This document shows, piece by piece, positions 10,290 to 61,834 of a stretch of 64,000 nucleotides of DNA (the first letter of the stretch is position 1; every line of letters starts with the position of its first letter). The position numbers and the translations under genes were made by a program. Origin of the DNA: Eledone cirrhosa (lineage: Eukaryota). The stretch lies in NCBI GenBank assembly GCA_964016885.1, contig OZ024742.1, positions 321,718,001-321,782,000 on the forward strand, written 5' to 3'. The notes beneath the pieces are model-generated. The model was not told where the DNA came from. It was given only the letters and a program-made list of their open reading frames with translations, and made no database searches.

Positions 10290-13200
10290 ACAACTTAACA
10301 CCACCACCACCACCACATCCACCACCACCACATCCACCACCACTACAACCACTGTCACCACCACAACCGATACCACCACCACCACTAGAACCATTGTCAG
10401 CACCACTGTCACCACCACCACCACCACCACCACTAGAACCATTGTCAGCACCACTGTCACCTCCACAACCCATACTACCACCAATAAGAACACCACCACC
10501 ACCACCACCACCACCAACACCACCACCACCACCACCAACACCACCACCACCAACACCACCACCACTAACACCACCACCACCAATACCACCAACACCACCA
10601 CCACCAACACCACCAAAACCACCAACACCACCACCACTAACACGACCACCACCAATACAACCAACACCACCACCACCAACACCACCACCACTAACACCAC
10701 CACCACCACCGATACCACCAACACCACCACCACCACCACCAACACCACCAACACCACCAACACCACCACAACCACCACAACCAACACCACCAACACAACC
10801 ACCACTAACACGACCACCACCAACACCACCACCACCAGCACTAACACGACGCCACCAATACCACCAACACCAACACCACCACCAACACCACCACCACTAA
10901 CTCGACCACCACCAATACTACCAATACCACCAACATCACCACAACCAACACCACCAACACAACCACCACTAACACAACCACAATCAACACCTGCACCACC
11001 ACCAACACAAACATCACCACTACAACCACCAACAACAACATCAACACAACCATCACCACCGTCAACAACACCAACACAACCATCACCACCGTCAACAACA
11101 CCAGCACCAACACCACCACCAGCACCAACACCACCACCAACACCACCACCAACGACAACACCACCACCAACACAATCACCACCGCCAACACCAACACCAC
11201 CACCACCACCAACACCACCATCAACATTACCACCACCACCAACACCATTACCAACACCACATCTAACACCACCACCAACACCACCACCACCGCCAATACC
11301 AACACCACCACCAACAATAACACCACCATCAACAACACCACCAACACCACCACCACCAACACCAGCAACACCACCACCACCACCACCATTACCAACTCCA
11401 CCACCACCACCACCGTCAACACCAAAACCACCACCAACAACAACACCACCATCAACACCACCACCAACACCACCACCACCACCACCACCACCACCAACAC
11501 TGCCAACACAACCATCACCAACACCACCAGCACCACCGTCAACAACAACTACACCACCAACAACAAAACCAACACCACCACCACCGCCAACACCGCTACC
11601 AACACTACCGCCAACACCAACACCACCACCAACAACAACACCACCACAAACAATGACAACAACACCACCACCAACACCATAAACACCACCACCAACACCA
11701 CCATTATTAACACCACCACTAGCACCACCGCTAAAACCAACACCACCACCATCACCACCGCCAACAGCAACACCCCACCACCGCCAACACCAACACCACC
11801 AACAACAACACCACCATCAACACCACCACCAACACCACGACCACCACCACGAACAACACCAACACCACCACCACGACCAACACCACCAATAACCAACACC
11901 ACCATACCAGCAACACCACCGCCAACACCAACACCACCACCAAATCCACCACCACCGCCAACACCACCATCAACACCACCACCAACACCACCAACAATAC
12001 CACCACCGCCAACACCACCACCACCACCACCGCCAACAACAACACCACCAACACCACCGCCACCACCAACACCACCACCAACACCACCACCAACACCAAC
12101 AATAACAACACCACCACCAAAATCAACAACAACACCACCACCAACAACAACAACACCACCACCAACACCATCAACACCACCACCACCAACAACAACAACA
12201 CCACCATCAACACCACCACCACCACCGCCAACAACAACACCACCACCAACACCACCACCATCAACACCACCACCAACACCACCACCAACACCAACACCAC
12301 CACCAACACCACCGCCACCACCAACACCAGCACCAATACCACCGCCAACACCAACACCACCACCAACACCATAACCACCGCCAACACCAACACCACCACC
12401 ACCAACACCACCATCAACACCAACACCACCACCACCAACACCACCATCAACACCACAACCATCACCACCAGCACCAGCACCAACACCGCCAACACAACCA
12501 TCACCAACACCGCCGCCACCACCGTCAACACCACCACCAACAACAACACTTACACCATCACCACCACCACTACAACCACCACCACTACCGCCAACACCAC
12601 CATCAACACCACCACCAACACCACCACCACGCAAAAACCACCACCACCAACAACAACACCTCCACCACCACCATTACCAACACCACCACCAACACCACCA
12701 CCAACAACAACACAGCCATCAACAACACCACCAACACCAACACCACCACCACCACCACCACCACCATTACGAACACCACCACCAACACCAACACCACCAC
12801 CACCAACACTACCACCACCACCACCATTACCAACACCACCACCAACACCACCACCACCGCCAACACCAACACCACCAACAACAACACCACCACCACCACC
12901 ACCACCACCACCAACAACAACACCACCACCAACACCACCACCACCAACACCACCGCCACCACCAACACCACCACCACCACCACCACCACCACCAACATCA
13001 ACAGCAACACCACCACCAACAACAACAACAACACCACCACCAACACCATCAACACCACCACCACCACCACCATCACCACCGCCAACACCAACACCCCACC
13101 ACCGCGAACACCAACACCACCACCACCAACACCACCATCAACACCACCACCAACACCACGACCACCACCACGAACAACACCAACACCAACACCAACGCCA

Positions 13201-16200
13201 ACACCACCATACCAGCAACACCACCACCAGCAACACCACCGCCAACACCAACACCACCACCAACTCCACCACCACCGCCAACACCACCATCAACACCACC
13301 ACCAACACCACCACCAATACCACCACCGCCAACACCACCAACACCATTACCAAAACCACATCTAACACAACCGCCAACTCCAACACCACCACCAACACCA
13401 CTACCACCGCCAACACCAACACCACCAACAACAACACCACCATCAACACCACAACCATCACCACCACCACCACAACACCAACACCACCACCAACACCATC
13501 AACACCACCACTAACACCAACACCACCACCAACACCATTACCAAAACCACATCTAACACAACCGCCAACTCCAACACCACCACCAACACCACTACCACCG
13601 CCAACACCAACACCACCAACAACAACACCACCATCAACACCACAACCATCACCACCACCACCACAAAACCAATACCACCACCGCCACCACCAACACCACC
13701 ACAACCAACACCACCACCACCACCAACACCATTACCAAAACCACATCTAACACAACCGCCAACACCAACACCACCACCAACACCAACACCACCAACAACA
13801 ACACCACCATCAACACCACAACCAACACCACCACCACCACAACACCAACACCACCACCAACTCCATCAACACCACCACCACCACAATTATCAACACCACC
13901 ACTAACACCAACACCACCACCGCCTCCACCAACACCACCACAACCACCACCACCACCACCACCAACACCAACAACAACACCACCACCAACATCAACAGCA
14001 ACACCACCACCAACAACAACAACACCACCACCAACACCATCAACACCACCACCACCACCACCATCACCACCGCCAACACCAACACCCCACCACCGCCAAC
14101 ACCAACACCACCACCAACACCACGACCACCACCACGAACAACACCAACACCAACACCACCGCCAACACCACCATACCAGCAACACCACCACCAACTCCAC
14201 CACCACCGCCAACACCACCATCAACACCACCACCAACACCACCACCAATACCGCCACCGCCAACACCACCAACGCCACCGCCAACAACAACACTACCATC
14301 ATCAACACCACCACCAACACCACCGCCAGCACCAACACCAGCACCAACACCACCGCCAACACCAACACCACCGCCAACACCAACACCACCACCACCACCA
14401 ACACCACCATCAACACCAACACCATTACAAACAGCACATCTAACACAACAGCCAACTCCAACACCACCACCAACACCACCACCACCGCCAATACCAACAC
14501 CACCAACAACAACACCACCATCAACACCACAACCATCACCACCAACACCAGCACCAACACCGCCAACACAACCATCACCAACACCGCCGCCACCACCGTC
14601 AACACCACCACCACCAACAACACTTACACCATCACCACCACCACCACCACCACCACCACTACCGCCAACACCACCATCAACACCACCACCAACACCACCA
14701 CCACGCAAAAACCACCACCACCAACAACAACACCTCCACCACCACCATTACCAACACCACCACCAACACCACCACCAACAACAACACAGCCATCAACAAC
14801 ACCACCAACACCAACACCACCACCACCACCACCACCACCATTACGAACACCACCACCAACACCAACACCACCACCACCAACACTACCACCACCACCACCA
14901 TTACCAACACCACCACCAACACCACCACCACCGCCAACACCAACACCACCACCAACAACAACAACACCACCACCACCACCACCATTATTAACGCCACCAC
15001 TAGCACCGCCGCTAACACCAACACCACCACCATCACCACCACCACCGCCAACACCAACAACACCACCAACAACACCACCATCAACACCACCACCAACACC
15101 ACGACCACCACCACGAACAACACCAACACCACCACCACCGCCAACACCACCATACCAGCAACACCACCACCACCAGCAACACAAACGCCAACACCAGCAC
15201 CACCACCAACTCCACCACCACCGCCAACACCATCATAAAAACCACCACCAACACCACCACCAATAACACCACCGCCAACAACAACACTACCACCAACACC
15301 ACCACCACCACCACCGCCAACAACAACACCACCACCAACACCACCACCACCAACACCACCGCCACCACCAACACCACCACCACCACCACCACCACGACCA
15401 ACATCAACAGCAACACCACCACCAACAACAACAACAACACCACCACCAACACCATCAACATCACCACCACCACCACCATCACCACCGCCAACACCAACAC
15501 CCCACCACCGCCAACGCCAACACCACCACCACCAACACCACCATCAACACCACCACCAACACCACGACCACCACCACGAACAACACCAACACCACCACCA
15601 CGAACAACACCAACACCAACACCAACGCCAACACCACCATACCAGCAACACCACCACCAGCAACACCACGGCCAACACCAACACCACCACCAACTCCACC
15701 ACCACCGCCAACACCACCATCAATACCACCACCAACACCACCACCAATACCACCACCGCCAACACCACCAACACCACCGCCAACACCAACACCACCAACA
15801 ACAACACCACCATCAACACCACAACCAACACCACCACCACCACCACCACCACCACCAACACCGCCTCCACCACCACCACCAACACCACCAGCACCGCCAA
15901 CACCACTACCAACACTACCGCCAACACCAACACCACCACCACCAACACTACCACCACCACCACCACCATTACCAACACCACCACCACCAACACTACCACC
16001 CCCACCCCCACCATTACCAACACCACCACCAACACCACCAACACTACCACCACCACCACCACCATTACCAACACCACCGCCAACACCACCGCCAACACCA
16101 ACACCACCACCAACACCACCACCACCGCCAACACCAACGCCACCACCAACAACACAGCCATCAACACCACCACCAATACCACCACCACCACCACAACCAC

Positions 16201-19200
16201 CACCATTACTAACACCACCGCCAACACCAACACCACCACCACCAACACCACCACCACCGCCAACACCAACACCACCACCAACAACAACACAACCATCAAC
16301 ACAACCACCAACACCACCACCACCACCACCACCACCACCACCACCACCACCACCACCATCAACACCATCACCACCACCACCACTACCGCCACCACCAGCA
16401 TCAACACCTCCATCAACACCACCAATAACACCACCATCAACACTACCACCACCACCAACACCATTACCAAAACCACATCTAACACAACCGCCAACTCCAA
16501 CACCACCACCAACACCACTACCACCGCCAACACCAACACCACCAACAACAACACCACCATCAACACCACAACCATCACCACCACCACCACAACACCAACA
16601 CCACCACCAACACCATCAACACCACCACCACTACAATTATCAACACCACCACTAACACCAACACCACCACCAACACCATTACCAAAACCACATCTAACAC
16701 AACCGCCAACTCCAACACCACCACCAACACCACTACCACCGCCAACTCCAACACCACCACCAACACCACAACCATCACCACAACCACCACAACACCAACA
16801 CCACCACCAACACCATCAACACCACCACCACCACAATTATCAACACCACCACTAACACCAACACCACCAACACCATTACCAAAACCACATCTAACACAAC
16901 CGCCAACTCCAACACCACCACCAACACCACCAACAACAATACCACCATCAACACCACAACCAACACCACCACCACCACAACACCAATACCACCACCGCCA
17001 CCACCAACACCACCACAACCACCACCACCACCACCACCAACACCATTACCAAAACCACATCTAACACAACCGCCAACACCAACACCACCACTAACACCAA
17101 CACCACCAACAACAACACCACCATCAACACCACAACCAACACCACCACCACCACAACACCAACACCACCACCAACACCATCAACACCACCACCACCACCA
17201 CAATTATCAACACCACCACTAACACCAACACCACCACCGCCTCCACCAACACCACCACAACCACCACCACCACCACCACCAACACCAACAACAACAACAC
17301 CACCACCAACATCAACAGCAACACCACCACCAACAACAACAACACCACCACCAACACCATCAACACCACCACCACCACCACCATCACCACCGCCAACACC
17401 AACACCCCACCACCGCGAACACCAACACCACCACCACCAACACCACCATCAACACCACCACCAACACCACGACCACCACCACGAACAACACCAACACCAA
17501 CACCACCGCCAACACCACCATACCAGCAACACCACCACCAACTCCACCACCACCGCCAACACCACCACCAACAACACTTACAGCATCACCACCACCACCA
17601 CCACCACCGCCAACACCACCTCCACCACCACCACCAACACCACCAGCACCGCCAACACCACTACCAACACTACCGCCAACACCAACACCACCACCACCAT
17701 TACCAACACCACCACCAACACTACCGCCAACACCAACACCATCAACAACACCACCACCAACGCCAACACCAACGCCACCACCAACAACACAGCCATCAAC
17801 ACCACCACCAATACCACCACCACCACCACCACCACCATTACTAACACCACCACCAACACCAACACCACCACCACCATTACCAACACCACCACCAACACCA
17901 CCGCCAACACCAACACCACCACCACCAACACCACCACCACCGCCAACACCAACACCACCACCAACAACAACACAACCATCAACACAACCACCAACACCAC
18001 CACCACCACCACCACCACCACCACCACCACCACCACCACCACCACCATCAACACCATCACCACCACCACCACTACCGCCACCACCAGCATCAACACCTCC
18101 ATCAACACCACCAATAACACCACCATCAACACTACCACCACCACCAACACCATTACCAAAACCACATCTAACACAACCGCCAACTCCAACACCACCACCA
18201 ACACCACTACCACCGCCAACACCAACACCACCAACAACAACACCACCATCAACACCACAACCATCACCACCACCACCACAACACCAACACCACCACCAAC
18301 ACCATCAACACCACCACCACCACAATTATCAACACCACCACTAACACCAACACCACCACCAACACCATTACCAAAACCACATCTAACACAACCGCCAACT
18401 CCAACACCAACACCAACACCACTACCACCCCCAATACCAACACCACCAACAACAACACCACCATCAACACCACAACCAACACCACCACCACCACAACACC
18501 AATACCACCACCGCCACCACCAACACCACCACAACCACCACCACCACCACCACCAACACCATTACCAAAACCACATCTAACACAACCGCCAACACCAACA
18601 CCACCACTAACACCAACACCACCAACAACAACACCACCATCAACACCACAACCAACACCACCACCACCACAACACCAACACCACCACCAACACCATCAAC
18701 ACCACCACCACCACAATTATCAACACCACCACTAACACCAACACCACCACCGCCTCCACCAACACCACCACAACCACCACCACCACCACCACCAACACCA
18801 ACAACAACAACACCACCACCAACATCAACAGCAACACCACCACCAACAACAACACCACCACCAACACCATCAACACCACCACCACCACCACCATCACCAC
18901 CGCCAACACCAACACCCCACCACCGCGAACACCAACACCACCACCACCAACACCACCATCAACACCACCACCAACACCACGACCACCACCACGAACAACA
19001 CCAACACCAACACCACCGCCAACACCACCATACCAGCAACACCACCACCAACTCCACCACCACCGCCAACACCACCATCAACACCACCACCAACACCACC
19101 ACCAATACCGCCACCGCCAACACCACCAACACCACCGCCAACAACAACACTACCATCATCAACACCACCACCAACACCACCGCCAGCACCAACACCAGCA

Positions 19201-22200
19201 CCAACACCACCGCCAACACCGACACCACCGCCAACACCAACACCACCACCACCACCAACACCACCATCAACACCAACACCATTACAAACAGCACATCTAA
19301 CACAACAGCCAACTCCAACACCACCACCAACACCACCACTACCGCCAATACCAACACCACCAACAACAACACCACCATCAACACCACAACCAACACAACC
19401 ATCACCTACACCGCCGCCACTACCGTCAACACCACCACCACCAACAACACTTACAGCATCACCACCACCACCACCACCACCGCCAACACCACCTCCACCA
19501 CCACCACCAACACCACCAGCACCGCCAACACCACTAGCAACACTACCGCCAACACCACCACCACCATTACCAACACCACCACCAGCACTACCGCCAACAC
19601 CAACACCATCACCAACACCACCACCAACTCCAACACCAACGCCACCACCAACAACACAGCCATCAACACCACCACCAATACCACCACCACCACCACCACC
19701 ACCACCACCACCACCATTACGAACACCACCACCACCATTACCAACACCACCACCAACACCACCGCCAACACCAACACCACCACCACCAACACCACCACCA
19801 CCGCCAACACCAACACCACCACCAACAACAACACAACCATCAACACAACCACCAACACCACCACCACCACCACCACCACCACCACCACCAACAACAACAC
19901 CGCCGCCACCACCATCAACACCACCACCACCAACAACACTTACACCATCACCACCACCACCACTACCGCCACCACCACCATCAACACCTCCACCAACACC
20001 ACCATCAACACCACCACCAACACCACCATCAACACTACCACCACAACCAACACCACCACCACCACAACACCAACACCACCACCAACACCATCAACCCCAC
20101 CACCACCACAATTATCAACACCACCACTAACACCAACACCACCACCGCCACCACTAACACCACCACAACCACCAACACCACCATCAACACCACCAACAAC
20201 ACCACCAACACCACCAACACCATCAACAGCACCACCAATACCACCACCACCAACAACACCAACACCACCACCAACAACAACACCACCATCAACACCACCA
20301 CCACCAACACCACCGCCACCACCACCAACACCTCAACCACCGCCAACACCACTATACCAGCAACACCACCACCACCAGCAACACCACCGCCAACACCACC
20401 ACCAGCGCCAATACCACCTTCAACACCACCACCAACACCACCACCATTACAACCACCACCAACACCACCAACACCGCCAACACCACCACCACCGCCAACA
20501 ACACCACCACCACCAACAACAACACCACCATCAACACGACCACTAATACCACCACCACCAACAACAACACCACTAATACCACCACCACCAACAACACCAC
20601 CACCACCACCACCACCACCACCGCCAACAACACCACCACCACCAACAACACCCCCATCAACACCACCACCAATACCACCAACAGCACCACCATCACCAAC
20701 TCCACCACCACCGCCAACACCACCACCACCACCACCGCCAACAACAACACCACCACCATCAACAGCACCACCAACAACAACAACAACAACACCACCACCA
20801 ACAACAACACCACCATCAACACCACCACCACCACCGCCAACAACAACACCACCACCAACGCCATCACAAACACCACCGCCACCACCAACGCCACCAACAA
20901 CAACAACAACACCACCACCAACAACAACACCACCATCAACACCACCACAACCACCGCCAACAACAACACCACCAACAACAACAACAACACCACCACCAAC
21001 AACAACACCACCATCAACACCACCACCAATACCACCAACACCACCACTAACAACACCACCAACACCACCACCTCCACCACCACCACTAACACGACCACCA
21101 TCAGTACCACCAATACCACCACCACCAACACCAACACCACTAACACGACCACCACCAATCGCACTAACACCACCATCACCAACTCCACCACCAACACCAC
21201 CGCCAACACCAACACCACCACCAACACCACCACCACCGCCAACACCAACACCACCACCACCACCAACATCACCATCAACACTACCACCACCACCAACACA
21301 ATTACCAACACCACATCTAACACCACCGCCAACACCAACACCACCACCAACACTACCGCCACCGCCAACACCACCACCAACAACAACACCACCATCAACA
21401 CCACCACCAACACCACCACCACCACCACGAACACCACCACCACCACCACCACCATTACCAACACCACCACTAACACCACCACCACCACCGCCAACACCAA
21501 CACCACCAACACCACTACCAGCACCACCATTATCAACACCACCACCAACACCACCACCACCGCCAATCCCAACACCACCACCAACACCAACACCACCAAC
21601 ACCACCAACACCAAGAACACCACTAATGCGACCACCCCCAGTACCACCAATACCACCACCACCAACACCACCAACACAATAATCACTAACACGACCACCA
21701 CCAATACGACCAACACCACCACCACTAACACGACCACCACCAATAAAACCAACACCACCAACACCAACAACACCACCACCACTAACACGACCACCACAAA
21801 TACCACCAACACCACCACCACCAATACCACCAACACCACCACCACTGACACGATCACCACCAATACCACTAACACCACCACCACCAACAAAATTTCAACA
21901 CAACTATCACCACCACCGCCACCAACACCGTCAACACCACCACCACCACCAAAAACCACCAACACCACCACCACCATTAACATCACCACCACCATCAACA
22001 CCAACACCACCACCAACACCACCACCAACACAAACACCACCACCAACAACATCAACAAAACCATCACCACCGTCAACAACACCACCATCAACACCACCAC
22101 CAACACCACCAACAACATCAACACCACCATCAACACCACCACCACCAACACCACCACCACCACCAACACCACCACCAACACCAACAACACCACCAACACC

Positions 22201-22463
22201 ACCACCGGCACCAACACCACCACCAACACCACCGCCAACACCCAAACCACCACCAACACCACAACCATCACCGACACCACCACCACCATCAACACCACCA
22301 TCAACACACCACCAACACCACCATCAACACTACCACCAACATCATTACCAACACCACATCTAACACCACCGCTAACACCAACACCACCAACAACACCACC
22401 ACCACCGCCAACACCAACACCACCACCACCAACAACAACACCACCATCAACACCAACACCAAC

Positions 22464-22494
<31 letters not shown>

Positions 22495-22744
22495 CCAACA
22501 CCACCACCACCACCACCGCCAACAACAACACCACCATCAACACCACCACCAGCACCACCACCACCATCAACACCACCACCAACACAACCACCACCACCAA
22601 CACCATCAACACCACCACCACCACCAACATCATTACCAACACCACATCTAACACCACCGCTAACACCAACACCACCAACAACACCACCACCCCGCCAACA
22701 CCAACACCACCACCAACAACAACAACACCACCATCAACACCAAC

Positions 22745-22775
<31 letters not shown>

Positions 22776-23415
22776 CCAACACCACCACCACCACCACCAC
22801 CACCACCAACACCACCACCACCACCACCGCCAACAACAACACCACCATCAACACCACCACCAGCACCACCACCACCATCAACACCACCACCAGCACCACC
22901 ACCACCATCAACACCACCACCAACACAACCACCACCATTACCAACACCACCACTAACACCACCGCCAACACCAACACCACCACCAACACCACCGCCAACA
23001 CCACCGCCAACACCAACACCAGCACCACCACCAATACCACCACCACCACCACCTCCACCGCCAACAACACCACCACCAACAACACCAGCGTAACCAACAA
23101 CACCACCACCAACACCACCACCAATACCACCACCACCAACACCACCACCAATACCACCACCACCAACACCACCACCAATACCACCACCACCACCACCACC
23201 ACCGCCAACACCACCACCCCACCACCACCAACACCAACACCAACACCAACACCACCACCAACACCACCACCAACACCAACACCAACACCAACACCACCAC
23301 CAACAACAACACACCAACAACATCAACACCACCATCAACACTACCAACAACACCACCACCACCCCTCAGCACCAACACCACCGCTCACATCAACACAACC
23401 ATCACCACCGTCAAC
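10290..23415. repeat. About 13-kb degenerate (CCA/CAA)n tract with kb-scale internal duplications
   Basis: Almost pure C/A on the + strand. Rare markers recur, for example CGCAAAAACC at about 12630 and 14704 and CACTTACAGCATC at about 17575 and 19449. Confidence 0.95.
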
Positions 23416-28324: not shown

Positions 28325-28381
<57 letters not shown>

Positions 28382-28502
28382 AACGAGTAGGACCCCGACG
28401 GCTGAGCTCAAGCCGTTTCGACGGCTAATTATATATATTATATATATATATATATAGGAACGAGTAGGACCCCGACGGCTGAGCTCAAGCCGTTTCGACG
28501 GC

Positions 28503-28644
<142 letters not shown>

Positions 28645-30330: not shown

Positions 30331-31227
30331 ATCATTCATATGTTCATAACATCATCCGTTTCATCAATGCACTTTCCTTTGTGGGACGTCTGTGAACAGT
30401 TTCATATGTTCATAATAACAAAACCCCTCTTTTATTAATATATTATAATCTAGTCCTTGTCGGTGTTCTTGTTATTGTTGTTTCTCTTGTTGTTGCTGTT
30501 ATTGTCATCGTCGATGTGGGTGATGGTGGTGATGGTGGTGGTGATGATGATGGTGGTGGTGGTGGTGGTGGTGGTGGTGGTGGTAATGGTGGTGTCGTCG
30601 TCGTCGTTATTGTTGTTTGTGGCGGTGGTGACGTAATCATCATTGTCGTCGTTGTAGTTGTTTATTATTTTACATTGTCTTTGTCTCTGAAACCTATTTT
30701 TTCAATTGCGACACTAACTATACAATAGTGAGATCTGTTTTACTTATGTGCCTTTCAGGTTTGATCTTTGAACATTAGCGATCGATTACGTTACCAATTG
30801 AAATGATTGGTTTTTAACGTTTGTTTTCTTTTAGCAATTAATTTTCTTTTGAGGGTGATAGATTAGCTGATTGATTAGAGCTTTGGAAGAATGCTTGGGA
30901 GTATTTATTCCGGCTATTTACGTTCTGATTTCAAATCCAGCTGAGGTCAACTTTAACATTCACTTTTCCGAGATGTATAAAATAGGTATAGGCTACGTAA
31001 CCGGTCCCGGCAAAATAGACAAGCATGCTTTTAAAGCTTATTTTACTAGTAAACTTTAAAGGGACGCAACTCTAGTCGGGGTCCCGGAAGCTTATTTTAC
31101 TACTAAATAATAAATAGTGCTTTAGAAGCCAGGTAGTGACTACTATCTTTAACCAAGGTCGTGACTTTCTGCTAAAATTTTTAATTTAGAAAATATTTGA
31201 CTTTCTGCTAAATTTCTTCAGCCATGG

Positions 31228-34200
31228 AACTCATTAGATGTGTGTGTATGTAACTCAGTAGATGTGTGTGTATGTAACTCAGTAGAAGTGTATGTAACTC
31301 AGTAGAAGTGTATGTATGTAACTCATTAGATGTGTGTGTATGTAACTCAGTAGAGGTGTGTGTATGTAACTCAGTAGATGTGTGTGTATGTAACTCAGTC
31401 AAGGTGTGTGTATGTAACTCAGTCGAGGTGTGTGTATGTAACTCAGTAGAGGTGTGTGTATGTAACTCAGTAGATGTGTGTGTATGTAACTCAGAAGATG
31501 TGTGTGTATGTAACTCAGTAGAGGTGTGTGTATGTAACTCAGTCGAGGTGTGTGTATGTAACTCAGTAGAGGTGTGTGTATGTAACTCAGTAGATGTGTG
31601 TGTATGTAACTCAGTAGAGGTGTGTGTATGTAACTCAGTAGATGTGTGTGTATGTAACTCAGTAGAGGTGTGTGTATGTAACTCAGTAGAGGTGTGTGTA
31701 TGTAACTCAGTCGAGGTGTGTGTATGTAACTCAGTAGAGGTGTGTGTATGTAACTCAGTAGATGTGTGTGTATGTAACTCAGTAGAGGTGTGTATATGTA
31801 ACTCAGTAGAAGTGTGTGTATGTAACTCAGTAGAGGTGTGTGTATGTAACTCAGTAGAAGTGTGTGTATGTAATTCAGTAGATGTGTGTGTATGTAACTC
31901 AGTAGAGGTGTGTGTATGTAACTCAGTAGAGGTGTGTGTATGTAACTCAGTAGATGTGTGTGTGTAACTCAGTAGATGTGTGTGTAGGTAACTCAGTAGA
32001 AGTGTGTGTATGTAACTCAGTAGATGTGTATGTATGTAACTCAGTAGATGTGTGTGTATGTAACTCAGTAGAGGTGTATGTATGTAACTCAGTAGAGGTG
32101 TGTGTGTGTAACTCAGTAGAGGTGTGTGTATGTAACTCAGTAGAGGTGTGTGTATGTAACTCAGTAGATGTGTGTGTATGTAACTCAGTAGATGTGTGTG
32201 TATGTAACTCAGTCGAGGTGTGTGTATGTAACTCAGTAGAGGTGTGTGTATGTAACTCAGTCGAGGTGTGTGTATGTAACTCAGTAGAGGTGTGTGTATG
32301 TAACTCAGTAGATGTGTGTGTATGTAACTCAGTAGATGTGTGTGTATGTAACTCAGTAGATGTGTATGTATGTAACTCAGTAGAGGTGTGTGTATGTAAC
32401 TCAGTAGAGGTGTGTGTATGTAACTCAGTAGATGTGTGTATATGTAACTCAGTAGATGTGTGTGTATGTAACTCAGTCGAGGTGTGTGTATGTAACTCAG
32501 TAGAGGTGTGTGTATGTAACTCAGTCGAGGTGTGTGTATGTAACTCAGTAGAGGTGTGTGTATGTAACTCAGTAGATGTGTGTGTATGTAACTCAGTAGA
32601 GGTGTGTGTATGTAACTCAGTAGAGGTGTGTGTATGTAACTCAGTCGAGGTGTGTGTATGTAACTCAGTAGAGGTGTGTGTATGTAACTCAGTAGATGTG
32701 TGTGTATGTAACTCAGTCGAGGTGTGTGTATGTAACTCAGTAGATGTGTGTGTATGTAACTCAGTAGATGTGTGTGTATGTAACTCAGTAGAGGTGTGTG
32801 TATGTAACTCAGTAGAGGTGTGTGTATGTAACTCAGTCGATGTGTGTGTATGTAACTCAGTCGAGGTGTGTGTATGTAACTCAGTAGAGGTGTGTGTATG
32901 TAACTCAGTAGAGGTGTGTGTATGTAACTCAGAAGATGTGTGTGTATGTAACTCAGTAGAGGTGTGTGTATGTAACTCAGTCGAGGTGTGTGTATGTAAC
33001 TCAGTAGAGGTGTGTGTATGTAACTCAGTAGATGTGTGTGTATGTAACTCAGTAGAGGTGTGTGTATGTAACTCAGTAGATGTGTGTGTATGTAACTCAG
33101 TAGAGGTGTGTGTATGTAACTCAGTAGATGTGTGTGTATGTAACTCAGTAGAGGTGTGTGTATGTAACTCAGTAGAGGTGTGTGTATGTAACTCAGTCGA
33201 GGTGTGTGTATGTAACTCAGTAGAGGTGTGTGTATGTAACTCAGTAGATGTGTGTGTATGTAACTCAGTAGATGTGTGTATATGTAACTCAGTAGAAGTG
33301 TGTGTATGTAACTCAGTAGAAGTGTGTGTATGTAATTCAGTAGATGTGTGTGTATGTAACTGAGTAGAGGTGTGTGTATGTAACTCAGTAGAGGTGTGTG
33401 TATGTAACTCAGTAGATGTGTGTGTGTAACTCAGTAGATGTGTGTGTAGGTAACTCAGTAGAAGTGTGTGTATGTAACTCAGTAGATGTGTATGTATGTA
33501 ACTCAGTAGATGTGTGTGTATGTAACTCAGTAGAGGTGTATGTATGTAACTCAGTAGAGGTGTGTGTGTGTAACTCAGTAGAGGTGTGTGTATGTAACTC
33601 AGTAGAGGTGTGTGTATGTAACTCAGTAGATGTGTGTGTATGTAACTCAGTAGATGTGTGTGTATGTAACTCAGTCGAGGTGTGTGTATGTAACTCAGTA
33701 GAGGTGTGTGTATGTAACTCAGTCGAGGTGTGTGTATGTAACTCAGTAGAGGTGTGTGTATGTAACTCAGTAGATGTGTGTGTATGTAACTCAGTAGATG
33801 TGTGTGTATGTAACTCAGTAGATGTGTATGTATGTAACTCAGTAGAGGTGTGTGTATGTAACTCAGTAGAGGTGTGTGTATGTAACTCAGTAGATGTGTG
33901 TATATGTAACTCAGTAGATGTGTGTGTATGTAACTCAGTCGAGGTGTGTGTATGTAACTCAGTAGAGGTGTGTGTATGTAACTCAGTCGAGGTGTGTGTA
34001 TGTAACTCAGTAGAGGTGTGTGTATGTAACTCAGTAGATGTGTGTGTATGTAACTCAGTAGAGGTGTGTGTATGTAACTCAGTAGAGGTGTGTGTATGTA
34101 ACTCAGTCGAGGTGTGTGTATGTAACTCAGTAGAGGTGTGTGTATGTAACTCAGTAGATGTGTGTGTATGTAACTCAGTCGAGGTGTGTGTATGTAACTC

Positions 34201-35868
34201 AGTAGAGGTGTGTGTATGTAACTCAGTAGATGTGTGTGTATGTAACTCAGTAGATGTGTATGTATGTAACTCAGTAGATGTGTGTGTATGTAACTCAGTA
34301 GATGTGTGTGTATGTAACTCAGTAGAGGTGTGTGTATGTAACTCAGTAGATGTGTGTGTATGTAACTCAGTCGATGTGTGTGTATGTAACTCAGTCGAGG
34401 TGTGTGTATGTAACTCAGTAGAGGTGTGTGTATGTAACTCAGTAGAGGTGTGTGTATGTAACTCAGTAGAGGTGTGTGTATGTAACTCAGTAGAGGTGTG
34501 TGTATGTAACTCAGTAGATGTGTGTGTATGTAACTCAGTAGAAGTGTGTGTATGTAACTCAGTAGATGTGTATGTATGTAACTCAGTAGATGTGTGTATG
34601 TAACTCAGTAGAGGTGTGTGTATGTAACTCAGTAGAGGTGTGTGTATGTAACTCAGTAGAGGTGTGTGTATGTAAGTCAGTAGAGGTGTGTGTATGTAAC
34701 TCAGTAGATGTGTGTGTATGTAACTCAGTAGAGGTGTGTGTATGTAACTCAGTAGAGGTGTGTGTATGTAACTCAGTAGAGGTGTGTGTATGTAACTCAA
34801 TAGAGGTGTGTGTATGTAACTCAGTAGAGGTGTGTGTATGTAACTCAGTAGACGTGTATGTATGTAACTCAGTAGAGGTGTGTGTATGTAACTCAGTAGA
34901 GGTGTGTGTATGTAACTCAGTAGATGTGTGTGTATGTAACTCATTAGATGTGTGTGTATGTAAATTAGTAGAGGTGTGTGTATGTAACTCAATAGAGGTG
35001 TGTGTATGTAACTCCGTAGAGGTGTGTGTATGTAACTCAGTAGATGTGTATGTATGTAACTCAGTAGAGGTGTGTGTATGTAACTCAGTAGATGTGTGTG
35101 TATGTAACTCATTAGATGTGTGTGTATGTAACTCAGTAGAGGTGTGTGTATGTAACTCAGTAGATGTGTATGTATGTAACTCAGTAGAGGTGTGTGTATG
35201 TAACTCAGTAGATGTGTGTGTATGTAACTCAGTAGATGTGTGTGTATGTAACTCAGTAGATGTGTGTGTATGTAACTCAGTAGAGGTGTGTGTATGTAAC
35301 TCAGTAGATGTGTATGTATGTAACTCAGTAGAGGTGTGTGTATGTAACTCAGTAGAGGTGTGTGTATGTAACTCAGTAGATGTGTGTGTATGTAACTCAG
35401 TAGATGTGTGTGTATGTAACTCAGTAGATGTGTGTGTATGTAACTCAGTAGATGTGTGTGTATGTAACTCAGTAGAGGTGTGTGTATGTAACTCAGTAGA
35501 GGTGTGTGTATGTAACTCAGTAGAGGTGTGTGTATGTAACTCAGTAGAGGTGTGTGTGTGTAACTCAGTAGAGTAGAAGTGTGTGTATGTAATTCAGTAG
35601 ATGTGTGTGTGTGTAACTCAGTAGAGTAGATGTGTATATATGTAACTCAGTAGATGTGTGTATGTAACTCAGTAGAGGTGTGTGTATGTAACTCAGTAGA
35701 AGTGTGTGTATGTAACTCAGTCGAGGTGTGTGTATGAAACTCAGTAGATGTGTGTGTATGTAACTCAGTAGAGGTGTGTGTATGTAACTCAGTAGAGGTG
35801 TGTGTATGTAACTCAGTAGATGTGTGTGTGTGTAACTCAGTAGAGTAGAGGTGTGTGTATGTAACTAA
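31228..35868. repeat. 24-bp minisatellite (TGTAACTCAGTAGAGGTGTGTGTA)n, about 4.6 kb
   Basis: Seen directly. A higher-order duplication with period about 1462 bp is marked by the variant GTAGGTAAC at about 31984 and 33446. Confidence 0.97.
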
Positions 35869-55650: not shown

Positions 55651-55867
55651 TAATATCCACTATAGGCACAAGGTTAGTAATTTGGGAGGAGGGGAAAGAC
55701 GATTAAATCGAAACCAGTATGTTACTGGAGCTTTATTTTATCCACCCAGTAAGGATAAAAGGCAAAGTTAATTTCGGCGCGATTTGAACTCAGACCGTAA
55801 AGAGCCGTAACTCTAAACTGCAAAGCATTGTGTCCGATTCCCTACCGATACTGCCAATCCACCGCCG
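55651..55867 (-). mobile_element. tRNA-derived SINE
   Basis: Reverse-complement match to the 43408-type copy. Confidence 0.8.
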
Positions 55868-55909
55868 TCAGACGTAATATAATAAACACACAAGAGAGTC
55901 TCGCTATGA

Positions 55910-55949
<40 letters not shown>

Positions 55950-56031
55950 AGTAATAATCATAAATGGGAAGAATAAAATCCGAAGAGGGGTCGATAAGGA
56001 TAATATATATATAAATATATATAACACGCAA

Positions 56032-56175
56032 ATATTTATTAATATAACAGATTAAAGTTTATGCGAAGAATCGCTGTTTTCACCGTTAACGGGATCTTCT
56101 GAAACTTGGAAGATCCCGTTAAGGGCGAAAGCCGCGATTCTTAGCATAAACTTTAATCTGTTATTTTAATAAATA
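56032..56175. repeat. Palindrome made of two Penelope pseudo-LTR tips
   Basis: Both arms match the 3' terminus of the downstream Penelope element at about 61535-61605 (GAAGATCCCGTTAA...AAACTTTAATCTGTTATTTTAATAAAT). Confidence 0.8.
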
Positions 56176-56204
56176 AATAAATAAATAAATATATATATAA
56201 ATAT

Positions 56205-56235
<31 letters not shown>

Positions 56236-56240
56236 AGTAT

Positions 56241-56329
<89 letters not shown>

Positions 56330-56449
56330 TATAGACATAGAATATTCGAAAATATTCTGTATGTTTATAATAAACATTTTGAAGACCTAATCGCTATAGA
56401 ATAGAATACGTCACGTATTACAATTAGATTCTCGATAAAAGCAAGGGAA

Positions 56450-56492
56450 GTAATCTACGCGTTTCATTCTCGTTAGAAATCATCAGGACTAC
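56450..56492 (-). ncRNA. Minimal type-I hammerhead ribozyme (also at 56760-56802, 57070-57112, 57380-57422)
   Basis: Minus strand GTAGTC-CTGATGA-tTTCT-aacg-AGAAt-GAAA-CGCG-TA-GATTAC. Confidence 0.85.
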
Positions 56493-57652
56493 ATATCCAG
56501 TGCTTTTATCGAGAATGACACAGCTAGAGACTTATAGAATACTTAGCTGTGTACAGGAACTGGTTTGAAAGAGCGGTTGCCGGTCCGGCAGAAATTAGAA
56601 ATTGGAATAAATGCTCTGAAATAGCGATATATATGTGAATATAGACATAGAATATTCGAAAATATTCTGTATGTTTATAATAAACATTTTGAAGACCTAA
56701 TCGCTATAGAATAGAATACGTCACGTATTACAATTAGATTCTCGATAAAAGCAAGGGAAGTAATCTACGCGTTTCATTCTCGTTAGAAATCATCAGGACT
56801 ACATATCCAGTGCTTTTATCGAGAATGACACAGCTAGAGACTTATAGAATACTTAGCTGTGTACAGGAACTGGTTTGAAAGAGCGGTTGCCGGTCCGGCA
56901 GAAATTAGAAATTGGAATAAATGCTCTGAAATAGCGATATATATGTGAATATAGACATAGAATATTCGAAAATATTCTGTATGTTTATAATAAACATTTT
57001 GAAGACCTAATCGCTATAGAATAGAATACGTCACGTATTACAATTAGATTCTCGATAAAAGCAAGGGAAGTAATCTACGCGTTTCATTCTCGTTAGAAAT
57101 CATCAGGACTACATATCCAGTGCTTTTATCGAGAATGACACAGCTAGAGACTTATAGAATACTTAGCTGTGTACAGGAACTGGTTTGAAAGAGCGGTTGC
57201 CGGTCCGGCAGAAATTAGAAATTGGAATAAATGCTCTGAAATAGCGATATATATGTGAATATAGACATAGAATATTCGAAAATATTCTGTATGTTTATAA
57301 TAAACATTTTGAAGACCTAATCGCTATAGAATAGAATACGTCACGTATTACAATTAGATTCTCGATAAAAGCAAGGGAAGTAATCTACGCGTTTCATTCT
57401 CGTTAGAAATCATCAGGACTACATATCCAGTGCTTTTATCGAGAATGACACAGCTAGAGACTTATAGAATACTTAGCTGTGTACAGGAACTGGTTTGAAA
57501 GAGCGGTTGCCGGTCCGGCAGAAATTAGAAATTGGAATAAATGCTCTGAAATAGCGATATATATGTGAATATAGACATAGAATATTCGAAAATATTCTGT
57601 AAGTATTCTATAAGTCTCTAGCTGTGTCATTCTCGATAAAAGCACTGGATAT

Positions 57653-57695
57653 GTAGTCCTGATGATTTCTAACGAGAATGAAACGCGTAGATTAC
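57653..57695 (+). ncRNA. Minimal type-I hammerhead ribozyme (also at 57963-58005, 58273-58315, 58583-58625)
   Basis: GTAGTC/GATTAC stem I, intact CUGAUGA and GAAA core, palindromic CGCG stem III, and a GUA cleavage triplet (cut after 57689). Stem I is extended by ATTCTCGATAAAAGCA/TGCTTTTATCGAGAAT. Confidence 0.85.
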
Positions 57696-58778
57696 TTCCC
57701 TTGCTTTTATCGAGAATCTAATTGTAATACGTGACGTATTCTATTCTATAGCGATTAGGTCTTCAAAATGTTTATTATAAACATACAGAATATTTTCGAA
57801 TATTCTATGTCTATATTCACATATATATCGCTATTTCAGAGCATTTATTCCAATTTCTAATTTCTGCCGGACCGGCAACCGCTCTTTCAAACCAGTTCCT
57901 GTACACAGCTAAGTATTCTATAAGTCTCTAGCTGTGTCATTCTCGATAAAAGCACTGGATATGTAGTCCTGATGATTTCTAACGAGAATGAAACGCGTAG
58001 ATTACTTCCCTTGCTTTTATCGAGAATCTAATTGTAATACGTGACGTATTCTATTCTATAGCGATTAGGTCTTCAAAATGTTTATTATAAACATACAGAA
58101 TATTTTCGAATATTCTATGTCTATATTCACATATATATCGCTATTTCAGAGCATTTATTCCAATTTCTAATTTCTGCCGGACCGGCAACCGCTCTTTCAA
58201 ACCAGTTCCTGTACACAGCTAAGTATTCTATAAGTCTCTAGCTGTGTCATTCTCGATAAAAGCACTGGATATGTAGTCCTGATGATTTCTAACGAGAATG
58301 AAACGCGTAGATTACTTCCCTTGCTTTTATCGAGAATCTAATTGTAATACGTGACGTATTCTATTCTATAGCGATTAGGTCTTCAAAATGTTTATTATAA
58401 ACATACAGAATATTTTCGAATATTCTATGTCTATATTCACATATATATCGCTATTTCAGAGCATTTATTCCAATTTCTAATTTCTGCCGGACCGGCAACC
58501 GCTCTTTCAAACCAGTTCCTGTACACAGCTAAGTATTCTATAAGTCTCTAGCTGTGTCATTCTCGATAAAAGCACTGGATATGTAGTCCTGATGATTTCT
58601 AACGAGAATGAAACGCGTAGATTACTTCCCTTGCTTTTATCGAGAATCTAATTGTAATACGTGACGTATTCTATTCTATAGCGATTAGGTCTTCAAAATG
58701 TTTATTATAAACATACAGAATATTTTCGAATATTCTATGTCTATATTCACATATATATCGCTATTTCAGAGCATTTAT

Positions 58779-58986
<208 letters not shown>

Positions 58987-59004: not shown

Positions 59005-61599
59005 GTAACGTGCAGTTACTGTAGGTTCACCCGAATGAGCACTCGATGAGGGAAAGAGCCATATATCGGTTGAGCCCCTCTATTCGGCTTATTAACCCTA
59101 CGAAGTCCGATTTAGGTAGACTTAGTAAAACGATTCTTGATAGAGTTATACCTGAACTTAGAAGTTTGGCCCCTCTTGCACTGTGGAACAATTCTTTCGC
59201 GGTGATTGATTGGTTCAACGGCATATGTAACAAGGAACATTGCCGTTTTATCCAATTCGACATCAATAATTACTACTCCTCCATCACTTTACCACTTCTC
59301 CTTAGAGCTATCAATTTCGCTAAAACACTCACAGTGGTTAAGTATTTCGAAGTTGATGTCATCCCCAATGCCCGAAAGTCGGTGATTAATTTCGACGACT
59401 CTATTTGGATTAAAAAATCCAATAGTACCCCATTCGACGTGAGTATGGGCGTCAGTGACTCTGCGGTGGTTACTGATCTTATTGGCCTTTTCCTTCTTTT
59501 CTCTATCAAGGACGAATTCCCCAACGCGGGCGGTGGTTTGTACCGTGACGATGGTCTTTTGACCATGACTAAGTGCGGACCTCGTGCTTGCGACAGGTTC
59601 AGAAAAGAACTCACAGCCTTCTTTAAAGGCTTCAACCTCTCTATACAGGTTGAGGCCAATCTCTCGGTCGTTAATTACCTCAACGTTACCCTCAATTTAT
59701 TGAATGGGTTGTATTACCCGTATAGAAAGCCGAATGATACGCTTAATTACATACGTAAGCATTCCAACCATCCTGCCAGCATAACCAAGAACCTGGTAAG
59801 AAACGTTTCGTTGAGGCTTTCCCGTCTTTCCACCAACGAGCGTATTTTCAACGACCATTCCACTTATTACAATGAAGCTCTTGCTCGAAGTGGATTTGTC
59901 GATAAGGTAGCATATACAGAGTACGAATATAGACCTAGAAGAAATAGATCCCGTCGCATTTGTTGGTTTAACCCACCATATAATATGGAGGTGGCCACAC
60001 CATTAGCTAAGATCTTTCTTTCCCTTATTACGAAGCATTTTCCCCCTACACATAAATATAGTAACATTTTTAATAGAAATACTATCAAAATTTCTTACTC
60101 TACGACTCCTAACCTTGCACATAACATCACAGCTTCAAATTTAGCTAAACTACCTAGCCGTAGGAACACGTGCAACCCTGTAGCTAGTACTAACTGTAAT
60201 TGTAGGAATCGGGCTGATTGCCCCCTATTCGGGAAATGCCTCTCTAGTAACATTGTCTACAAATGATAGGGCCTACATAGGGTTAACCGCCAATAGTTTC
60301 AAGCAGCGTCTTTACATGCGTACCCAATCTTTTCGTTACCCTCTAAGAAGGAATATGACGTCACTTTCAGCTTATATCTGGAGTCTAAAAGACAACCACA
60401 CCCAATATAAGTTACACTGGCAGATCCTAGCTAGGACTAGATCGTATAACGGAAATAAAAGACAATGTGACCTCTGCGCGGCTGAGGCCCTGGAAATACT
60501 CTACGCCACAGACCACATCTTAAACAAAAAATCTGAGGCAATTTCGGCTTGTAAACATAAATTGCACAAAACTTTCCTGTATTACAGCCCCACGTTATAC
60601 CCTAACGGATAGTACGATCTATACGTGGTAATTTTACGTCTTGATGTGGGAGCTAAGTCTATGTTTTGTTTATTCCTTTACTTATTTGCATAGGTAAGTA
60701 TATATTACCCGTATGTTTTGTGAAGGTACGTATACCTTCTCGTACGTATATTTGATTGTTATGGCGTATAATTTTATATATTGGTACATAGGGTTTGGCT
60801 ATGTGTATTCGGGAGTTTTGCGTCTGTGTGAGTATGCAGGTTCGTACGTATGGTGGGTGTGTGTATATGTGTACTTCTTGTTTTAGTTGACTTACGTCTT
60901 CGAACATTCGTGTATTTATATGTGGGTATGTGTGTGCGCTTGTTATATACGTATTTATTTATTCATATACGTTTATATAATTATTTATTTATTTGTATAC
61001 ACGCATACACACACACACATATTTATATGTGCGTGGTTTTGTATACCTATGGTAAGGTTTTGCGTATGCTTGTGTATGTACGTATTTGTTTGCGTGTATG
61101 TATTTATTTATTTCTATTACTTCTGTATTGTATTTATTTACTTTGTTCTTAACTCTGAAGCGGAGATTCATTTGGTCTCCTAGTTAGAATTTTAGTCTAC
61201 GACTTCTGCTATACCATTTACGTGGTTTTGTCTTTGCTTGCTATTGTTCTCCACGCACCACATATGACGTATTATCTTCGTTTTTTCGTTCATTGCCAGA
61301 GAACGTCTCTATGCACCACCTAAGAGAACATTAGTCTACGACCTCTTTTATACCATAAACATGGTCTTTGCGCGTAATTGTTTTTCACCGCTCCTATTAA
61401 TGACGTATTATTCGTTTTTTCCCGTTCTTTGCAAGCGAACGTTTCCACGAACCAAAGTATCGTCTTCCTGTCTTCCTCCGGTTGCAACGTTTTTTGAAAT
61501 ATCCAGTTCTGCGTTTACAGATTGACTTTGTTAGTTTCAGAAGATCCCGTTAAGGGTGAAAGCAGCGATTCTTTGCTTAAACTTTAATCTGTTATTTTA

Positions 61600-61605
<6 letters not shown>
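59005..61605 (+). mobile_element. 5'-truncated Penelope-like element with a long 3'UTR/pseudo-LTR
   Basis: RT and GIY-YIG ORFs, then about 1 kb of non-coding tail with a diverged ~140-bp duplication (61185-61455), ending at (TA)n. Confidence 0.9.
59046..60612 (+). pseudogene. Penelope RT-GIY-YIG polyprotein, broken by a deletion/frameshift at about 60260
   Basis: RLINP, FDINNYYSSI, FDVSMG, LYRDDGL, YRKP, SNHP, WFNPPY, CNCRNRADCPL, NIVYK / YIGLT..FKQR, CDLC and LNKKSE. Confidence 0.9.
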
Positions 61606-61630
<25 letters not shown>

Positions 61631-61772: not shown

Positions 61773-61834
61773 TATTTTATCTGATGAAAGCGTACCAAAG
61801 TTTTTGATACCCTTGAAATATATATAATAGAATA
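61773..61834 (+). ncRNA. Minimal type-I hammerhead ribozyme in a ~240-bp AT-rich structured element
   Basis: TATTTTAT-CTGATGA-AAG..GTA..CAAA..TTTG..TAC..CTT-GAAA-TATATA-TA-ATAGAATA. 8-bp stem I, extended by ATTTATAAAAC/GTTTTATAAAT. Confidence 0.75.

Follow-up and report, generated by a model that had tools for sequence, protein, structure and literature searches.

Metazoan non-LTR retrozymes (LTR, long terminal repeat) are non-coding tandem arrays with units of 170-400 nt, each carrying a type I hammerhead ribozyme, and it has been proposed that a circular RNA (circRNA) serves as their template and a Penelope-like element (PLE) as their partner (PMC7229834; bioRxiv 10.64898/2026.07.22.740005). 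PLE insertions are characterized by an inverted, 5'-truncated neighbour copy, a tail of 30-40 bp at one end only, targeting of (TA)n, and nearby hammerheads on opposite strands (PMC8557442, PMC4209133). The cause of the tandem or inverted structure is called undefined there, and PMC8557442 counts its origin, along with that of the one-sided tail, among the open questions. Here, we analysed 64,000 nt of the Eledone cirrhosa genome (GCA_964016885.1, contig OZ024742.1, positions 321,718,001 to 321,782,000, forward strand), in the following referred to as the window. It contains a 310-nt repeat inserted in (TA)n that is classified, based on its sequence, as a young non-LTR retrozyme with a type I hammerhead predicted to self-cleave.

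Two further systems provide the mechanistic background. The PAc (Poseidon) protein of the anole cuts and extends both strands of AT-rich targets, is predicted to form a dimer, and its reverse transcriptase (RT) uses two adjacent internal start sites that bound the tail (PMC11167929); the main text of that study does not treat inverted insertions or circles. In L1 twin priming, both 3' ends of a break prime on one RNA, which leaves an inversion (PMC2246262). Retrozymes as a class, insertions with inversion and tail, and initiation at two sites are already in the literature. Our literature search, which covered subscription journals thinly, returned no paper combining the three into a strict pairing of two start sites on one template, applying twin priming to PLEs, or reporting inverted retrozyme arrays or edits fixed therein.

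Tandem Repeats Finder, applied to the 64-kb window, identified two arrays of one 310-bp unit at 56317-57601 (4.1 copies) and 57600-58784 (3.8 copies). The left arm (56326..57601, minus strand, 4.1 units) is the unit in reverse complement and runs from unit position 185 at its inner end (57601) outward to 56326; its outer end, the 'S' site (~220-229), is the unit's own AT tract and grades into the TA repeat. The right arm (57600..58784, plus strand, 3.8 units) extends from unit position 1 at its inner end to the 'T' site (255) at its outer end, and matches the unit without a mismatch through to 58784. The (TA)n target flanks the insertion on the left (56169..56325) and on the right (58785..58889), and at the inversion junction (57600..57601) the arms overlap by a 2-nt TA microhomology; no strand is assigned to these three features. 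The mid-array flip from about 4.1 minus units to about 3.8 plus units and the TA overlap at the join, both pointed out in a preliminary description made from the sequence alone, were thereby recovered. The near-perfect palindrome of ~2.4 kb proposed there was confirmed as a 1,150-bp stem with 0 mismatches in the best register (56326-57475 with 57600-58749); however, it is not centred on the junction, since it encloses a 124-nt loop, and the right arm alone continues for another 35 nt. This one-sided extension from the S to the T site (58750..58784, plus strand) is the counterpart of the Penelope tail (PMC8557442, PMC11167929). Two similar 11-mers indeed lie side by side at the join, but they do not represent annealed homology: both copies are retained, which rules them out as annealing site, and the true overlap is 2 nt. 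Among the window's open reading frames (ORFs), no non-repetitive one longer than 87 codons touches the array. The same junction was found once more in the genome (L043; G000:C3:39036581), at a locus where flanks and arm lengths differ and the roles of S and T are swapped.

Hammerhead cores begin at 57659, 57969, 58279 and 58589 on the plus strand and at 57416, 57106, 56796 and 56486 on the minus strand, so that a read-through transcript from either direction would indeed carry four sense ribozymes, as had been supposed. The type I motif (57653..57695, plus strand, repeated at 310-bp spacing) has predicted cuts after 57689, 57999, 58309 and 58619; for the same motif in the minus arm (57380..57422, minus strand) cuts are predicted after 57386, 57076, 56766 and 56456. 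Core and stems I-III are present in 8/8 full copies. Stem I pairs unit positions 54-59 to 91-96, the base of stem II is a U-U pair, as in axolotl HHR_Amex2 (metazoan retrozyme literature, PMC7229834 / bioRxiv 10.64898/2026.07.22.740005), and stem III is short and palindromic, i.e., of the dimer type that has been described as dimer-requiring (PMC4209133). Rfam gave no match at the gathering threshold in the window, and the hammerhead was called from core motif and pairing. The ribozyme is enclosed by a long predicted stem (57629..57717, plus strand), built from stem I and the pairing of unit positions 30-45 to 103-118, which in folding against shuffled sequences reached a z of -4.57 and was equalled in stability by 0/200 shuffles. 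This stem contains positions 39, 56 and 110, at which A>G changes recur in other copies.

The window locus belongs to a large family. The 3.0-Gb genome holds 4,033 exact copies of the hammerhead 43-mer, and end patterns on the forward strand matched 798 T ends and 973 S ends; doubling these forward counts, as reverse counts were inflated by repeated matches, gives an estimate of roughly 1,600-1,950 insertions. In a genome-wide pattern search, 342 junctions within 309 bp were minus-then-plus and 0 had the opposite polarity. Among 171 aligned loci, 147 were inverted, all minus then plus, and 24 were one-armed; loci chosen only by an outer end were inverted in 98/121 cases. Another 20 loci, selected because of A>G variants or because of a T end, added 19 inverted ones (166/191 examined in total). 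Apart from the window, the sampled loci all come from contigs C1-C3, the majority from C1. A near-duplicate (L068, of L069), short middle segments in L044, L163 and L172, and second insertions in L057, L094, L158 and L186 were dropped, the first two of these second insertions being counted as L058 and L131. Inversion is, therefore, the rule of the family and not an exception, and the window junction is an ordinary member. L056 and L180 seem to have a single arm but possess a T arm of ~10 nt, so that some one-armed loci are also twin-primed. Other hammerhead families (L092:197-3375; L038, L047, L107, L119; one with a unit of 466 nt) were likewise arranged minus then plus, and the rule seems to be valid genome-wide across hammerhead families.

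The outer ends turned out to be fixed. One S and one T end were present in each of 143/143 complete inverted loci (four of the 147 were excluded as an end was cut by a gap or region edge) and in 19/19 of the further ones, while S/S or T/T pairs never occurred (162/162). The S end lies at unit position 217-229 and the T end at 246-262, with 255 in 89/143 loci; in 162/162 complete inverted loci the gap between them corresponds to the one-sided 30-40-nt Penelope tail. The resemblance to the inverted pseudo-LTR (pLTR) signature of Penelope, already suspected in the preliminary description, thus extends to both inverted arms and tail. The expectation that other loci would invert and start at random phases was only partly correct: most do invert, but the phase varies at the inner junction only. 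There, ends are scattered across the unit and show no excess near the ribozyme cut (5/286), and the two of a locus showed no constant phase relative to each other. The 110 of 144 junctions without inserted bases had a mean overlap of 2.35 nt compared with 0.75 expected, and 60% of them overlapped by at least 2 nt compared with 18% expected; the other 34 have inserted bases. Some joins are favoured, as the window junction recurs once and three others recur among the 147 inverted loci. TA-rich flanks were found at 141/147 and 130/147 loci, figures biased upward by the end-selected searches, which demanded TA at one end. In sister families (4,877 motif matches; L204-L233, L048, L145, L195, L197) the S-T segment and the T end are kept and the remainder has diverged, which would fit a cis-acting site for the RT. 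Several of their hammerhead cores seem, by eye, to have a U3-A8 pair in place of C3-G8. Fillers occurred at two junctions, 272 nt of unrelated GC-rich sequence (L059:2099-2370) and 252 nt of TA repeat (L122:4794-5045); they probably go back to a captured template and to an insertion that came later or with repair.

Sequence variants indicate that each insertion derives from one template. The sample comprised 55 haplotypes, and two random loci match in haplotype with a probability of 0.14; even so, 197/199 variants fixed in one arm were also fixed in the other, and 32 locus-private variants were present in every unit of both arms (up to 28 units). At sites covered by at least 5 units, the variant spectrum was U-shaped: 153 were single, 22 were fixed and private, and 20 were intermediate. 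Non-fixed variants were shared between arms at 2/43 positions in the shared reach, 56A>G mosaics aside, and at equal unit index only once. More than one unit was present in 253/286 arms, and in both arms of 115/143 loci; arms reach 27 units, their medians are 1,050 and 1,185 nt, and the S arm is longer in 76/143 loci and the T arm in 67/143. A cleaved linear monomer is thereby excluded as template, because so many arms exceed one unit and so few inner ends fall near the cut. Most simply, a monomer circle would account for private variants in all units, and the multi-unit arms with one haplotype per insertion agree with the earlier suggestion of rolling-circle reverse transcription. Single-unit changes in the 147 loci showed a strand bias when read on the ribozyme strand (T>C 28 against A>G 8; C>T 32 against G>A 19), perhaps reflecting the error spectrum of the PLE RT. 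Within the arms of L126, L168, L184 and L249, non-A variants formed irregular or period-6 mosaics, for which template switching, multimeric circles or later exchange are candidates.

We favour, with a probability of about 0.8, that the array in the window arose in a single event, in which a non-coding 310-nt hammerhead retrozyme was inserted through two-sided (twin) target-primed reverse transcription of one probably circular RNA, carried out by a Penelope-like enzyme acting in trans. In this process, array transcripts would self-cleave by means of dimeric hammerheads and then circularise. A dimeric PLE protein with RT and GIY-YIG activities would bind the conserved S-T segment and nick both strands of the TA repeat; one 3' end would prime at ~255 and the other at ~220-229, aided by pairing with the AT tract of the RNA. 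Each RT would circle the RNA, with a median of 3-4 times, and the two cDNA 3' ends would finally be joined by microhomology-mediated repair. The polarity of 342 to 0 matches what is expected of two arms that are cDNAs primed from the outer ends, and, as S always pairs with T and never with itself, one complex rather than two independent ones is indicated.

Several observations weigh against this interpretation. Neither the 30 sister loci nor the flanks of the fetched loci yielded an autonomous or ORF-bearing element carrying the S-T motif, in a search that was not exhaustive for the genome. Arm lengths are weakly correlated (rho 0.25), 23/121 end-selected loci are one-armed, and target-site duplication candidates (e.g., 14 nt in L034) are inseparable from the similarity of TA repeats. 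In L058, L087 and L184, a small number of non-fixed variants recur in both arms but not at matching positions, so some exchange of units has taken place after insertion. In L085, both arms carry one and the same variant in their outermost unit, in keeping with a multimeric template. Finally, in vitro the anole PLE works mainly on unprocessed RNA, and hammerhead cleavage is not required (PMC11167929).

The last two points, the variant in L085 having an equal unit index on either side, speak for two-sided priming on a long, linear, uncleaved multimer, transcribed from a donor array of uniform units and used for insertion without a circle, and so do the weak stem III and the U-U pair in stem II of the window hammerhead. 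However, without a bottleneck of one unit such a template leaves the 32 private variants fixed in every unit unexplained; moreover, of the 43 non-fixed variant positions in the shared reach, 56A>G mosaics aside, only 2 are shared and only 1 at equal index, and arms reach lengths of up to 27 units. We consider the linear multimer unlikely, even though it is the strongest competitor. Local amplification, by which a short inverted insertion would later grow by unequal crossover and be homogenised by gene conversion (bioRxiv 10.64898/2026.07.22.740005), could explain some block duplications (L058, period 7) and the exchanges across arms. Conversion able to fix variants across the inversion should, however, leave more intermediate than single variants, the opposite of the U-shaped spectrum, and the single-unit changes have the strand bias (T>C over A>G) that RT errors would have, which makes this scenario very improbable. 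Slightly less plausible still is fold-back, in which one cDNA copies itself and the inverted arm is the second-strand copy: this would yield the same polarity and a shared haplotype, but a copy cannot outgrow its template and either arm may be the longer one, the fixed and differing outer ends are left without reason, and single-unit errors are not mirrored in the other arm. An assembly or chimeric-read artefact is hardly conceivable: none of the run X5 contigs crosses the window junction, yet fold-back chimeras would be centred and free of polarity while this junction is off-centre and genome-wide polarity absolute, the outer ends are fixed and unequal, and short-read contigs of run X5 contain 14 other joints, all minus-to-plus.

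The preferred mechanism, twin priming on one probably circular RNA, resembles that of L1 in the microhomology at the inner junction and in the origin of both arms from one RNA. The first L1 primer anneals at the poly(A) end, and the second at a variable internal site of a linear RNA. In the retrozyme insertions, in contrast, both starts are fixed, internal and ~35 nt apart, poly(A) is lacking, and each cDNA exceeds one unit; they work like L1 twin priming but are not L1 products. In the anole PAc system, no difference in start site between strands was seen and hammerhead cleavage was dispensable (PMC11167929), whereas retrozyme insertions use each site exactly once. With Penelope-like insertions they share the inverted, 5'-joined copy, the one-sided tail, the (TA)n target and the opposite-strand hammerheads; they differ in being non-coding, in having multi-unit arms on both sides and in carrying variants that indicate one template, PLEs being autonomous (PMC8557442, PMC4209133). 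Metazoan retrozymes have been described as tandem; in the E. cirrhosa family inversion is usual and the ends are fixed. The word 'inverted' has 0 occurrences in the main text of PMC7229834, and in bioRxiv 10.64898/2026.07.22.740005 it is limited to the title of a reference. The E. cirrhosa arrays appear to be born multimeric and not grown locally, and the family argues that retrozyme arrays originate as arrays.

A more tentative generalization, to which we give slightly less than even odds, is that each Penelope-type insertion is the product of one enzyme dimer, the two RTs of which start from two fixed sites of the same RNA and here circle one ribozyme-made circRNA, so that each locus would record a single RNA molecule including its edits. 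If this reading holds, both the Penelope tail and the inverted pLTR would be explained, circRNA would be a retrotransposition template in an animal, and RNA editing would feed heritable genome change. The retrozyme family makes the unexplained inverted Penelope-type insertions testable: well over a thousand young insertions allow sharp predictions, namely one S and one T start, one template, and copying through the ribozyme cut site.

The family may also hold a genomic record of RNA editing. Before substitutions were counted, 11 subfamily markers were set aside, and template-borne substitutions were counted once per background. A>G made up 20/47 template-borne but 8/162 single-unit substitutions (p = 2e-9), and by event exceeded T>C by 20 to 4. 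As regards the hammerhead rather than editing, none of the template-borne variants fell into its 12 core positions compared to 6/162 single-unit variants, a difference that is weak taken alone. Sites 39, 56 and 110 recur on 3, 5 and 4 backgrounds, respectively; all three lie in base-paired stretches of the stem, each with U as 5' neighbour, and 840 units genome-wide carry 56G and 828 carry 110G. Overall, 13/20 A>G events have a 5' U (p = 0.02), the neighbour preferred by ADAR. Tolerance of wobble pairs alone is disfavoured, because C>T would also pass and no template-borne C>T was found within the stem. In L072 and L245, the outer units have A and the inner units G, the switch that an edit during copying would leave; L077 has a single A among G units. 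A return to A was seen at 4/52 A>G locus-sites, with 12 loci having been chosen for A>G, compared to 0/237 others, and two of the four were innermost units by the junction, which is only a hint at an ambiguous reading of inosine.

Other observations count against editing. By distinct site, A>G exceeds T>C by only 10 to 4 (p = 0.06), two of the 11 set-aside markers are themselves T>C, and the 5' base shows a modest bias (p = 0.02-0.06). Non-A sites have mosaics as well (L126, L168, L249), and template switching could be the source of recurrence on several backgrounds. On balance, we regard it as somewhat more probable than not that the A>G-rich template changes are a fossil of A-to-I editing. 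Accepting this, some circles would have undergone editing within their own stem, either ahead of copying or while it was under way, and every unit would then hold the edit as a fixed G, a step to which we attach the same modest preference. Hyper-editing of long palindromic double-stranded RNA (dsRNA) was not seen: templates carried 0, 1 or 2 A>G changes in 123, 22 and 2 of 147 loci, hence at most 2.

The preliminary description had further proposed that self-cleavage competes with silencing through long dsRNA. This was not supported, as the templates are not hyper-edited and the arms diverge in ribozyme sense, so that a sense transcript begun within an arm should run away from its complement. 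Unit contigs of 340 nt (310+30) in runs X1, X2 and X3 were considered as possible circles, a reading rejected for X1 and X3, since these runs, and also X8, carry a host SINE (short interspersed nuclear element) at higher depth. Those in X1 and X3 are read as traces of genomic DNA, and the SINE comparison of X1, X3 and X8 yields no evidence of circRNA or horizontal transfer.

Adjacent to the array lies a broken RT element on the plus strand (59025-60612, 3' region to ~61620), in which an RT frame is followed, after a frameshift, by a GIY-YIG-like frame. We take it to be a Penelope element by its motifs; its RT ORF has no Pfam or PDB match. Close relatives are located in L103 and L141. The S-T motif is absent from the 3' end of the broken element, which makes a role as the partner improbable. 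On the other side, 55950-56200 (related copy at 61540-61620) is an older miniature inverted insertion of another family in a TA repeat, consisting of two ~60-nt arms from the 3' end of the adjacent RT element. The tail of the left arm is the longer one, and the architecture is that of the retrozyme insertion on a small scale. Very common short inverted insertions (L072, L099, L103, L187, L201, L213) contain a hammerhead stem II nearly identical to that of the unit, and this family may point to where the ribozyme came from or to a partner pLTR. Unrelated families contribute further hammerhead-like cores at 61781 (+), 7319 (+), 28076 (+) and 51910 (-). The window also contains a diverged copy of an abundant SINE-like repeat (55690-55870), a 13-kb CAC-type satellite (10299-23409), a 24-bp minisatellite with 193 copies (31224-35845), and a 77-bp repeat of 2.4 copies within TA repeats (28352-28534).
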